Origin: Promethearchaeota archaeon
Lineage (GTDB): Archaea > Asgardarchaeota > Odinarchaeia > Odinarchaeales > JBHLKK01
Reading direction: 5' to 3'
Assembly (NCBI GenBank): GCA_048939465.1
Contig: JBHLPL010000009.1
Location: 1 to 32,000 of the forward strand
DNA: 32,000 bases
In this document: positions 2,247 through 5,570 of the stretch, one piece after another
How positions within the stretch are numbered: the stretch's first letter is position 1
Layout: every line of letters begins with the position of its first letter
Made by a program: the position numbers and the translations under genes
Notes under the pieces: generated by a model
Database searches by the model: none
Told to the model about the DNA's origin: nothing
What the model saw: the letters and a program-made list of their open reading frames with translations, nothing else

Positions 2247-2277
2247 GGCTAATTAGAAAGTACTCTCGGAATGCTGT

Positions 2278-2459
2278 GCCGGGGTAGCCAAGTGGTCTAC
2301 GGCGCTGGCCTCGAGAGCAGCTAACATAAAAGGAAGAATACATAAAAGACAACGGAAATCCTTTGGGACAGATTGAACAAGAAAGTCAGTGACGCAGTAG
2401 CGTCTCGCGGGTTCGAATCGGCGCTACATTACGCCGCGAGAATCCTGCCCCCGGCGCCA
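2278..2459 (+). tRNA. tRNA-Ser(CGA) with two introns (37/38: 2316-2383; 59/60: 2418-2442) and encoded CCA
   Basis: Acceptor stem GCCGGGG/CCCCGGC, discriminator G plus CCA, anticodon arm CTGGC-CTCGAGA-GTCAG after removing intron 1, long variable arm GACGC-AGTA-GCGTC, T arm GCGGG-TTCGAAT-CCTGC after removing intron 2. Confidence 0.93.
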
Positions 2460-2538
2460 CTTAATACAACCCATGTTACCGATCAATTAGTGCATCAATC
2501 AACACGAGTCGGGATTGGAGGGTTGGTGTTGAGGCTGT

Positions 2539-2863
2539 GTAGACTGCCCCCCGCTTTCGCAGGGAGCCTTCCATCAGAGGTTGAGTATGGTGCACCGCAC
2601 CACGCAACCCCACCGTCAACAGGACGAAAGAGCCTGCCTACAGGGACTCCAGCTCTGGTAAACTGGGAAAAGACGTTGTACCCTCGAACTTCCCGCACCT
2701 TATCTCATCAATCCCCCCCGCGGGTCATTAACCGTTTCCACATGGGAGAAAAGCGTGCCTTTAGCCCTATTCGAATATATTGCAAGAATGTAGAATGTAC
2801 TTGGAGACGGTTCAATCACTCTCCGCCCTTCCGGACGGAGTTTCCTTGAGGTGGTTCAGGTGT
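2539..2863 (+). mobile_element. Element E1 (325 nt): ORF-less IS200/IS605-like (omegaRNA/HEARO-like) insertion near the 5' end of porG
   Basis: Starts GTAGACTGCCCC plus a hairpin, ends with hairpin CTCCG..CGGAG-TTTCCTTGAGGTGGTTCAGGTGT directly before ATGAA. Its 3' half aligns with E2 and E3. Family assignment is inference from end motifs. Confidence 0.7.
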
Positions 2864-3420
2864 ATGAAATTCGCTGGCATGGTCGAGGAGGACAAGGTGC
2901 AGTAACAGCATCCTATGTTCTCGTAGATGCCGCATATAGAGACGGCTATGAAGGCGTTCAGTCTTTTCCTTTTTTCGGTGCTGAGAGGAGAGGGGCACCA
3001 GTTAAAGCGTTTACTAGAATTTCAAAGACGATGATATATTCCCGCTGCCAAATTTATGAGCCTGATGCGATCATAGTTTTGGATCCTACTTTGCTGGATA
3101 TTGTCGATGTTACGGAAGGATTGAAAAGAGGCGGAGTCATTGTAGCCAATGCAAATGAGGTTCCAAAGAAATGGAGAAACAAGAATTGGAAGATATACAT
3201 AGTTGATGCTACTGCAATAGCGCTAGAAGTCGGCTTGATCGTAGCGGGATCCCCTGTATTAAACACGCCGATGCTGGGCGCATTTGCTAAAGCAACGGGA
3301 TTAGTAAGGCTGGAGAGAATCAAGGAAGCGATAAGCAATAAGTGGAAAGGCAAGGCCGGAGAAAGAAATATAAAAGCGGCAGAATTAGCATATGAACAGT
3401 GTAAATTGGTAGTATCTTAG
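2860..3420 (+). CDS. porG: 2-oxoacid (pyruvate):ferredoxin oxidoreductase gamma subunit
   Basis: YEIRWHGRGGQGAV and FFGAERRGAPVKAFTRIS. GTG at 2860 follows SD GAGGTG. Substrate specificity (por versus vor/kor) cannot be resolved from sequence. Confidence 0.92.
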   Translation: MYEIRWHGRGGQGAVTASYVLVDAAYRDGYEGVQSFPFFGAERRGAPVKAFTRISKTMIYSRCQIYEPDAIIVLDPTLLDIVDVTEGLKRGGVIVANANEVPKKWRNKNWKIYIVDATAIALEVGLIVAGSPVLNTPMLGAFAKATGLVRLERIKEAISNKWKGKAGERNIKAAELAYEQCKLVVS

Positions 3421-3436
3421 GCTAGGGGGACTTATT

Positions 3437-3769
3437 CTGAATTCTGGAACTCGGCAAAAGAGTCTGGTTCTTGGAAAGACTGCTAAGACCAAGAAAAAGA
3501 AAGCAGGAATTAGACCTGACGCAATACCTTTATCAAAGCCTGGCAGGGGATCTTACGGCAGAACCGGAGATTGGAGAACCTTCAAGCCGGTAATGGATAA
3601 AGAAAAATGCAACAAATGTATGCTCTGTTGGCTTTATTGTCCAGAAGGAGTAATAGATCAAGGGAAAGAAGGATATCCGAAAATCGATTATATGTATTGT
3701 AAAGGTTGTGGCATTTGTGCTCAAGAATGCCCATCCAAGTGCATAGAAATGGTGAGAGAGGAAAAGTAA
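3437..3769 (+). CDS. porD: 2-oxoacid:ferredoxin oxidoreductase delta subunit (2x[4Fe-4S]); start codon uncertain, missing from the ORF track
   Basis: The frame encodes PLSKPGRGSYGRTGDWRTFKPVMDKEKCNKCMLCWLYCPE...YCKGCGICAQECPSKCIEMVREEK*. There is no in-frame ATG/GTG/TTG before the conserved region; CTG at 3437 after GGGGGA is tentative. Confidence 0.88.
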   Translation: MNSGTRQKSLVLGKTAKTKKKKAGIRPDAIPLSKPGRGSYGRTGDWRTFKPVMDKEKCNKCMLCWLYCPEGVIDQGKEGYPKIDYMYCKGCGICAQECPSKCIEMVREEK

Positions 3770-4065
3770 ACTATTCCTCTCCTGTCGAAGGAGCTTATGA
3801 CTATGCTAGACCTCAATTCCCGAGCGGGCTTTGGTTCCGGTACACGCCAAATCAGGGGGCAGTTTACATCGTCCCAGCCCACTAGTCCCCATATAACGTC
3901 GGGGTTTATAGTTTATTTCACACATCTTCCCCACAGGTCGGTGACCGTTTCCGCGTCAGAGAGGGGTGCGCCTTTAGATATTTCAGCAAATATATAACAA
4001 ACGTATTTGAAGGCCACTAAATTCCTCTCCTCCCTTTCGGACGGATTCTCCTTGAGGTGGTTCAA
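3766..4065 (+). mobile_element. Element E2 (300 nt) at the porD/porA junction
   Basis: Starts GTAAACT (overlaps the porD TAA), ends TTCTCCTTGAGGTGGTTCAA directly before ATGAA (porA start). About 70% ungapped identity to E3 over 138 nt by hand count. Confidence 0.8.
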
Positions 4066-5277
4066 ATGAAAACACAGATTATGACGGGAAATACGGCTGC
4101 AGCGTATGCTGCCAAATATGCGAGAGCACAAGTTATCGCTGCTTATCCCATAACACCACAAACCACAATCGTAGAAGCGATAGCGAGTCTCATAGATGAA
4201 GGTGAAATGGAAGCAGAATACATTCGTGTCGAGAGTGAACACAGTGCTATGGCAGCTTGCATTGGTGCTGCCGCTACTGGAGCCAGAGCATTTACTGCAA
4301 CATCATCCCATGGCCTTACTTTGATGCATGAAATGCTTCATTGGGCTAGCGGATCTAGGTTGCCCATTGTTATGGCAAATGTCAATCGAGCCATGGGACC
4401 GCCGTGGAATATATGGCCCGATCACAATGATAGCATATCACAAAGAGATGTTGGATGGATACAATTCTATGTCGAAAACAATCAAGAGGTATTCGATACG
4501 ATCTTACAGTGCTACCGGATTTCTGAAAACCAAGAAGTTCTGTTGCCCTCCATGGTGAACCTCGACGGCTTTATTATTTCTCACACCTCTGCCCCGCTAA
4601 GCTTACCTGGTCAAGAAGAGGTCGATGAATTCATACCGGACTATAACCCAAATCCGGAGAAACAACTTGTCATGGATACTCACAAACCAGTGACACATGG
4701 CAACATCATTATGGTTAACAGTCCAGACGATTGGTATTATGAGTATCGTTATATGATTCACGAAGCTATGATGAACGCCAAGAAGGTCATTCAAGAAGTT
4801 GTAGAGGAGTTTCACAGAAGATTCGGTAGGTCACACGGGGGATTGGTTGAAGAGTATAAATGTAAAGATGCAAACCTGATTTTAGTATCCATGGGAACTA
4901 TTGCAAGCCAGGCTAAAGCCGCTATCGATGAGTTGAGACAGGAAGGATACAAAGTGGGAGCTCTCAAGCTAAGGGTTTTTAGACCATTTCCTAGGGAGGA
5001 GTTCCAAAGACTGGCAGATAGAGTCGAAGCCCTTGCGGTGATAGACAGGAACATATCTTTTGGAATGGGGGGTGCAGCTTCCGCAGAGATTAAGGCTGCA
5101 TTATACAATCACAAGAAACACCCATTAATCTTGGAGAACATCGCAGGAATAGGAGGGAGAGACGTGACATCCTCCGATATTAAAAAGATGGTTCTGGGTG
5201 CATTAGAAGTGCTAGAAACTGGTAAAACAGGAGAGGATATTAATTGGCATGGCCTCCGAGTGGGAGAAATGAAGTAG
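4066..5277 (+). CDS. porA: 2-oxoacid:ferredoxin oxidoreductase alpha subunit
   Basis: AYPITPQT, VESEHSAM, ATSSHGL, NVNRAMGPP, KLRVFRPFP. ATG at 4066 with SD GAGGTG. Confidence 0.95.
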   Translation: MKTQIMTGNTAAAYAAKYARAQVIAAYPITPQTTIVEAIASLIDEGEMEAEYIRVESEHSAMAACIGAAATGARAFTATSSHGLTLMHEMLHWASGSRLPIVMANVNRAMGPPWNIWPDHNDSISQRDVGWIQFYVENNQEVFDTILQCYRISENQEVLLPSMVNLDGFIISHTSAPLSLPGQEEVDEFIPDYNPNPEKQLVMDTHKPVTHGNIIMVNSPDDWYYEYRYMIHEAMMNAKKVIQEVVEEFHRRFGRSHGGLVEEYKCKDANLILVSMGTIASQAKAAIDELRQEGYKVGALKLRVFRPFPREEFQRLADRVEALAVIDRNISFGMGGAASAEIKAALYNHKKHPLILENIAGIGGRDVTSSDIKKMVLGALEVLETGKTGEDINWHGLRVGEMK

Positions 5278-5570
5278 ACTGCCCCTCCGATAAGAAAGGA
5301 GTTTATGACTATGTTTGACTACAATTTCTTCAGGGGGTCCGGTTGCATCACATGCCAAATCAGGGGACGGTTTATAGCGTCCCAGCCCAGTGACCCGCAC
5401 ACAGCGTCGAGGTATGTAGTCTCTTTCACCCATGCTCCTCATCCGTTATTAGCCGCTTCCTCCCTCCGAGAGCGTACCTCTGAATCCATTAGCACGGTTG
5501 AAACGAACGTATTTAAGGACCGCCCAATTGATCCCTTACTTTTCGGAAAGAAACTTCGTGAGGTGGTTTG
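5274..5570 (+). mobile_element. Element E3 (297 nt) at the porA/porB junction
   Basis: Starts GTAGACTGCCCC (overlaps the porA TAG), ends CTTCGTGAGGTGGTTTG directly before ATGAA (porB start). Homologous to E2. Confidence 0.8.

Follow-up and report, generated by a model that had tools for sequence, protein, structure and literature searches.

The closest described counterparts of the element treated here are the PATEs, ~300-nt gene-less elements known from Haloquadratum walsbyi (PMC3119063) and, as ISGst, from Geobacillus stearothermophilus (PMC10055086). PATEs carry subterminal hairpins at both ends, lack inverted terminal repeats and insert beside a fixed 5-nt motif. The 3' end of tnpB, together with the guide-RNA region, is the source of their right end, and a Y1 TnpA gene at another locus of the genome provides for their mobilisation in trans. 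All of these properties recur in E1, a 325-nt insert at positions 2539-2863 near the 5' end of porG, the gene of the POR gamma subunit, or in the family to which E1 belongs. E1 lies on contig JBHLPL010000009.1 of a Promethearchaeota archaeon of the Odinarchaeales (assembly GCA_048939465.1), of which the first 32,000 nt, hereafter the window, were analysed. By its architecture, E1 is a non-autonomous, gene-less IS200/IS605-type derivative of the PATE-like sort, and thus a familiar kind of element in an uncommon position rather than a new kind of system. It departs from the PATEs in four respects: most likely it has entered coding sequence rather than an intergenic region; it combines halves from two subfamilies; it has a flanking duplication of 3-4 nt, for which the textbook mechanism does not account; and the tip of its left end also reads as a ribosome-binding site in the sense of the host gene. 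We consider it likely that porG survives through this element-borne ribosome-binding site in combination with a duplicated start-capable codon.

Two further described systems allow for a comparison with the E1-porG arrangement. The Rickettsia palindromic elements, in-frame translated miniature inverted-repeat transposable elements (review PMC10969869), resemble E1 in being mini-elements within coding sequence through which stop-free read-through is possible. If one copy of a 7-nt tandem duplication is disregarded, E1 amounts to exactly 106 stop-free in-frame codons. In contrast to the Rickettsia elements, however, its 325 nt are not a multiple of 3, a TGA closes its frame ahead of the new gene start, and the open frame is not conserved across its family. 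Archaeal termination-reinitiation (Huber et al. 2019, PMC6728339; 2023, PMC10666635) shares with E1-porG a stop codon a few nt before the start and a Shine-Dalgarno sequence embedded in the end of the upstream open reading frame (ORF). In Haloferax volcanii, re-initiation amounts to 40-60% at a gap of 13-14 nt and is abolished at 22 nt (PMC10666635). Coupled pairs differ from E1-porG in that their upstream ORF is the gene of a partner subunit instead of transposon-derived junk and in their usual gap of -4 or -1, compared with +10 nt here.

The insertion itself becomes clear upon comparison of the genome under study (G000; 1.96 Mb, 152 contigs, 91% complete) with two reference genomes of the same genus (G001 and G002). 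Both relatives display an empty site at the E1 junction, behind the same upstream tRNA-like gene. After deletion of 2539-2863, the G000 sequence reads GGAGGGTTG GTG TTG AGG CTG T/AT GAA ATT (then CGC TGG; the slash marks the insertion point), next to AAAGGTGGG ATG CTG AGA TTG TAT GAA ATT (then CGC TGG) in G002 and AAAGGTGGA ATG TTG ACA ATG TAT GAA GTT (then CGC TGG) in G001. As these empty sites align to the joined sequence without a gap, E1 is, by alignment, a true insertion at that junction. The trinucleotide TGT is found on either side of E1, and the boundary can thus be moved by up to 3 nt without altering the restored sequence. A search of genome and metagenome contigs with the exact junction patterns revealed no other strain carrying E1 at porG.

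Upstream of E1, two remnants of the native gene start remain on the plus strand. A Shine-Dalgarno sequence, GGAGG (2517-2521), aligns with AGGTGG of the empty-site relatives and is now orphaned. It is followed by a stump of the ancestral porG 5' end, GTG TTG AGG CTG T (2526-2538), which encodes M-L-R-L, supplies the opening base of the Tyr codon and is delimited by the gap-free alignment and the orthologue N-termini. The initial annotation, made from the window alone, had proposed that removal of the insert joins TTG AGG CTG T/AT GAA ATT CGC TGG in frame and had expected an N-terminus of the form xRLYEIRW in relatives with an empty site. Both predictions agree with the reference genomes, which encode MLRLYEIRW (G002) and MLTMYEVRW (G001). 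Its further claim that E1 interrupts the porG coding sequence most likely holds as well, given the upstream frame M-L-R/T-L/M-Y-E-I/V-R-W of the relatives and the N-termini of orthologues. Hence, we regard it as probable that E1 lies inside the ancestral porG ORF. In that case, PorG has lost M-L-R-L and now begins M-YEIRW, a loss that is unlikely to matter, since the Pfam domain starts only at residue 10.

E1 is one of three related ~300-nt inserts in the por operon, the others being E2 (~3766-4056) and E3 (~5275-5570). The canonical tip of this family reads GAGGTG-GTTYAG/ATGAA, the spacer between GAGGTG and the target ATG being invariably 6 nt. At a canonical copy, this ATG is the start codon of the host gene itself, which therefore has an element-borne Shine-Dalgarno sequence 6 nt ahead of its start. 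At porG, in contrast, the target (2864-2868; ATGAA on the plus strand, TTCAT on the element's minus strand) is out of frame and is read as T/AT GAA (Tyr-Glu), which leaves the gene body cut off from its own ribosome-binding site and start. Between the canonical tip, which ends at 2859, and ATGAA there are four extra bases, GTGT (2860-2863, plus strand), whose in-frame GTG at 2860 occupies the position of the target ATG in canonical copies. The replacement Shine-Dalgarno sequence GAGGTG (2848-2853, plus strand) is located on the left-end tip 6 nt before this start and is present in nearly all copies of the subfamily that we call type A, confirming the earlier proposal that the 3' end of E1 supplies it. 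The 186-codon gene opened by GTG 2860 (2860-3420, plus strand) starts M-Y-E-I-R-W and encodes a full-length POR gamma subunit (PF01558, E 8e-45).

The same annotation had attributed the in-frame GTG to the end of E1. Its position and frame stand, but its origin in the element most likely does not: GTG 2860 is probably a duplicate of the host codon that preceded Tyr, and its being in frame follows from this origin. E1 itself would then probably contribute only the Shine-Dalgarno sequence and the spacer. Across E1 from the GTGT, the host sequence reads CTGT (xTGT, 2535-2538), and the relatives have ATGT or TTGT at this position once. For each copy, the host sequence adjoining the right-end tip on its left was compared with the sequence immediately ahead of the target. 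A shared suffix of at least 3 nt is found in 4 of 19 copies, compared with 3 of 342 mismatched pairs (0.9%), while the remaining 15 have none. Such suffixes are displayed by E1 (window 2860-2863, 3 nt) and by the copies at C10:14655-14956 (3 nt), C38:1585-1878 (6 nt) and G002:C150:1942-2240 (L077; 9 nt). For the C38 copy, both relatives have an empty site with a single AGATAT.

Transposition of IS200/IS605 elements has been described as making no target-site duplication (PMC10055086, PMC8612924), and TnpB cuts 15-21 bp from its motif (PMC8612924). We speculate that the 3-9-nt duplications are a repair footprint, left when an empty site cut by TnpB was refilled from a filled copy through homologous repair and a few host bases were retained as a short flap. 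Their position, variable length and microhomology joints fit this idea. Aberrant cleavage by TnpA was considered as another source of the 4-nt duplication and rejected, as we found no supporting motif at the alternative cleavage sites that it would require.

The proposed course of events would begin with insertion of E1 3' of the TTCAT target formed by the Tyr-Glu codons near the porG start (xTG T/AT GAA). This would have separated porG from its original ribosome-binding site and start and, most likely, cost it three or four N-terminal codons (M-L-R-L), depending on the native start used, which we infer. In the sense of the por genes, the left-end tip brings GAGGTG and a 6-nt spacer, the same arrangement that would serve the genes behind at least 13 other copies, E2 and E3 among them. 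The GTGT after the tip would then provide a codon able to start translation, necessarily in frame and at the optimal distance of 6 nt, and PorG would be made as M-YEIRW by Shine-Dalgarno-led initiation at GTG 2860. Should the native promoter transcribe the region, ribosomes would translate a 107-codon junk leader and stop at a TGA 10 nt before GTG 2860. The proximity of this stop to the new start may add termination-reinitiation coupling, which would not be needed for expression. Independent initiation appears sufficient, because E2, E3 and ~10 other copies use the same site without an ORF reading in.

How much of PorG was lost upon insertion depends on the native start, for which G000 offers three candidates, GTG 2526, TTG 2529 and CTG 2535. 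All three in-frame, start-capable positions are kept in the three genomes. Counted from the GGTG-equivalent of the native Shine-Dalgarno sequence, the codon after 2 nt is ATG in G001 and G002 and GTG in G000, that after 5 nt is TTG in G001, CTG in G002 and TTG in G000, and that after 11 nt is ATG in G001, TTG in G002 and CTG in G000. One possibility is that the native start was the proximal codon directly before Tyr. The 4-nt duplication would then have preserved the whole ORF, MLRL would never have been part of the protein, and E1 would sit just upstream of an intact porG, as canonical copies do. The codons found before Tyr in the three genomes, namely ATG, TTG and GTG, are indeed the set of usual start codons, and the present N-terminus of PorG would simply equal the native one. 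However, the proximal codon lies 11 nt from the GGTG-equivalent, whereas the element tip, porD and the porG of same-order genomes have a spacing of ~6 nt, and G000, G001 and G002 alike keep start-capable codons at 2 and 5 nt. A common N-terminus among orthologues is M-x-x-x-(hydrophobic)-[WYF]-E-[IV]-R-W, and relatives, those of the same order as well as distant ones, mostly start 3-5 residues before the aromatic residue. Furthermore, G000 and G002 differ at three bases of the LRL codons, each time synonymously. The spacing, the orthologue N-termini and these synonymous differences together favor one of the two distal codons, and we consider a proximal native start rather unlikely.

A second alternative concerns the leader ORF, which runs on the plus strand from the orphaned start through E1 (2526-2849) and comprises 107 stop-free codons. 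It ends at a TGA (2847-2849) inside the new Shine-Dalgarno sequence; this stop belongs to the conserved TTGAGGTGG tip. The initial annotation had noted the open frame from TTG 2529 to the TGA overlapping the new Shine-Dalgarno sequence, which can be read directly. Translation of the leader, or coupling through it, might be the selected mechanism, with ribosomes from the orphaned start reading E1 to melt structure or to re-initiate at GTG 2860, possibly after an earlier stage as an in-frame PorG insertion that was uncoupled by the 7-nt duplication. In composition-matched simulations, the chance of such an open frame is P ~0.02, and overall we put it at ~0.02-0.07. Among the 14 other full copies in which the TGA-terminated frame can be scored, 13 have 2-7 stops and a single one (C84) is open. 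E1 has lost in-register stops of its nearest relatives, with CGA instead of TGA at 2685 and TGG at 2802, where 12 copies have TAA, TGA or TAG. The gap of 10 nt between the leader stop and GTG 2860, with the Shine-Dalgarno sequence embedded in the leader end, falls in the range where re-initiation works in Haloferax (PMC10666635). The perfect 7-nt tandem duplication, AGAATGT twice (2785-2791 and 2792-2798, plus strand), is specific to E1, being absent from 16 other aligned mini-element copies and the full-length insertion sequence (IS). When one of its copies is removed in silico, the insertion measures 318 nt (106 codons), in frame and free of stops, and the old start and porG are joined in one ORF of 295 codons.

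These features hint that translatability through E1 mattered, now or earlier. On the other hand, E2, E3 and ~10 other copies present the same ribosome-binding site behind ~290 nt of untranslated spacer with no incoming ORF, and the C84 copy has acquired the same open frame by chance, fused to nothing. Loss of two stops is not improbable at ~20% divergence from the relatives, and there is little structure to melt, as the sense-strand fold of E1 is no more stable than that of shuffled controls (z +0.9). We therefore regard selection for leader translation as possible yet doubtful, and the same estimate applies to a functional role for leader translation as such. Two related candidates were rejected. 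The C84 copy (C84:19830) does not provide another example of an incoming ORF, as its open frame starts past the stop of the upstream gene. Likewise, the leader peptide is not considered a real protein, since it has no Pfam match and its frame is not kept in other copies.

The remaining alternatives do without the old start, the insertion or the gene itself. Transcription of porG could begin at a promoter inside E1, in which case the upstream region including the old start would be irrelevant. TATA-like boxes are present in E1 (TATATT, 2777-2782) and E2 ~70-80 nt before the start, and the TATATTA box that the relatives have ~50 nt upstream of porG reads CATGTTA in G000 (2470-2480, compared with L033 ~1437-1444). 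This points to a native por promoter that may have decayed or shifted after the arrival of E1. However, the E1/E2 box is not conserved across the family, for which reason a conserved promoter in the left-end half was rejected, and the corresponding stretch of full-length elements is found upstream of the tnpB gene of the opposite strand. A promoter inside E1 thus appears improbable. Far less credible still is removal of E1 at the RNA level, either as a tRNA-type bulge-helix-bulge intron or by IStron-like self-splicing, which would restore MLRLYEIRW. Such removal would be in frame, but splicing would be pointless for E2 and E3, which are intergenic. The junction duplex of E1 (-17.5 kcal/mol, compared with a shuffled mean of -20.2) permits no bulge-helix-bulge to be drawn, and this candidate was rejected. 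Rfam, searched at the gathering score and at E up to 1, detected no intron or ribozyme and no group I/II core in E1. Finally, porG could be dead or dispensable in G000 and its new start meaningless, given a second gamma-subunit paralogue (46% identical) at C34:5019-5558. This is very improbable, as all four por genes are intact, the ratio of nonsynonymous to synonymous substitution rates (dN/dS) of porG is 0.08-0.11 and a strong ribosome-binding site stands at ideal spacing ahead of the in-frame start. Rescue of porG by the ribosome-binding site of E1 and the duplicated codon is, in our estimate, the likely explanation.

Several points weigh against this explanation. If, of the three start-capable positions, the proximal codon (ATG in G001, TTG in G002) is native, PorG has lost nothing. 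The GTGT matches the host CTGT at only three of its four bases, and its origin is unexplained by the textbook mechanism, because IS200/IS605 elements should not duplicate their target. Likewise, a tnpB-linked copy of the type-B subfamily, to which the right end of E1 belongs, was not found in G000 at its 91% completeness. Independent initiation would not call for as much selection on translatability as is suggested by the stop-free frame and by a length that was in frame prior to the 7-nt duplication. In addition, the transcription start, the start codon in use and translation of the leader are all inferred.

If this explanation is correct, a compact archaeal genome has absorbed a transposon hit in the first codons of a central-metabolism gene and retained the gene, with the element end acting as a portable ribosome-binding site and a tiny target duplication supplying the start codon. 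At such sites, gene callers will misplace starts or call additional ORFs, which is a lesson for annotation. What sets E1 apart from canonical copies such as E2 and E3 is its probable position in an ORF, the short host duplications, and the open leader with its 7-nt duplication. Tentatively, these traits might be read jointly, although we consider this combination rather unlikely. E1 would first have been tolerated as a 106-codon in-frame insertion in PorG and would now form a translated leader feeding the new start, while the 3-9-nt duplications would be footprints of TnpB homing with incomplete flap removal, which supplied the start codon at E1. If the leader part is true, a mini-transposon has been co-opted into the translation of a host gene, that is, transposon sequence has been recruited to translational control. 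If the footprints do stem from repair during RNA-guided homing by TnpB, they would document in nature a process for which such evidence is rare.

The assignment of E1 to the IS200/IS605-type mini-elements draws on the whole family. G000 contains 19 full copies of ~295 nt, plus partial ones, in which no terminal inverted repeats were found. An alignment of 16 copies shows subterminal hairpins kept at both ends, a few of the changes being compensatory, and G·T wobbles in these hairpins occur only on the minus strand, opposite to por. This agrees with the minus strand being the element's own, with the right-end tip at 2539 and the left-end tip on the porG side. The minus-strand fold of E1 is slightly better than that of shuffled controls (z -1.1), and no guide-RNA family of Rfam matches E1. 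The target adjoins 14 of the 19 G000 copies as ATGA[A/G] (ATGAA in 13, ATGAG in 1), and most copies of G001 and G002 likewise adjoin a target of this type. In two places, C55 and C5, the right-end half of a type-A copy extends into the 3' end of a tnpB gene encoded on the opposite strand, and E2 and E3 retain remnants of the TnpB C-terminal coding region on the minus strand (blastx E 1e-5 and 3e-4). E1 lacks a transposase or nuclease gene of its own and, apart from the 107-codon leader, contains no long frame. For Y1 TnpA, G000 has a single gene, at C105.

The chimeric nature of E1 is apparent from its two halves. Bases 1-161 belong to one subfamily (type B) and bases 162-321 to that of E2 and E3 (type A). 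The right-end half (2539-2699, minus strand) ends with the tip ...AGTCTAC/, carries a hairpin at 2547-2566 and has relatives at C10:25502-25653, C144:4070, C138:467 and C62. The left-end half (2700-2859, minus strand) carries a hairpin at 2821-2840 and ends with the canonical tip ...GGTTCAG at 2859. The type-B subfamily's own left end is without GAGGTG. Elsewhere in G000, a full copy is immediately adjoined on its left by a partial right-end tip (GTAAACTATCCCTCC...; C59:1586-1616), which suggests a tandem or nested insertion at the same target.

Downstream of porG follow porD (4Fe-4S), porA (POR_N, PFOR_II) and porB (TPP_enzyme_C). Together with porG, these genes are intact and contain the expected Pfam domains. 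The porG orthologues of G001 and G002 are 85-87% identical to that of G000, and the dN/dS values against these two genomes, given above, indicate that porG is under purifying selection.

The tRNA-like gene upstream of porG (2275-2460, plus strand) is kept in G001 and G002. Its anticodon-loop region reads CTCGAGA and its 3' end ...CCCCGGCGCCA, and it is apparently split by two inserts. ARAGORN reported no tRNA in the window, and both ARAGORN and Rfam miss this gene.

The start of porD is also atypical. There is no in-frame ATG, GTG or TTG between the stop at 3410-3412 and 3593, and the N-terminal 52 residues of PorD are conserved in G001 and G002. In all three genomes, the sequence ahead of porD consists of GGGGGA, 6 nt and CTG (window 3425-3439, with CTG at 3437; L032, reverse strand; L033, ~2065-2085). 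The porD start is thus probably CTG or another non-standard codon, 16 nt past the porG stop.

At the porD/porA junction (3758-4070, compared with L032/L033 ~2395-2450), the relatives are not simply a version without E2. In them, ~27 extra bases (GAAATGAAGACAAAGCTCTCAGAA) separate the porD stop from the ATGAAA corresponding to the porA start of G000. The junction of the relatives holds two ATGAA motifs, indicating that the genomes differ either in where porA starts or in where E2 inserted.

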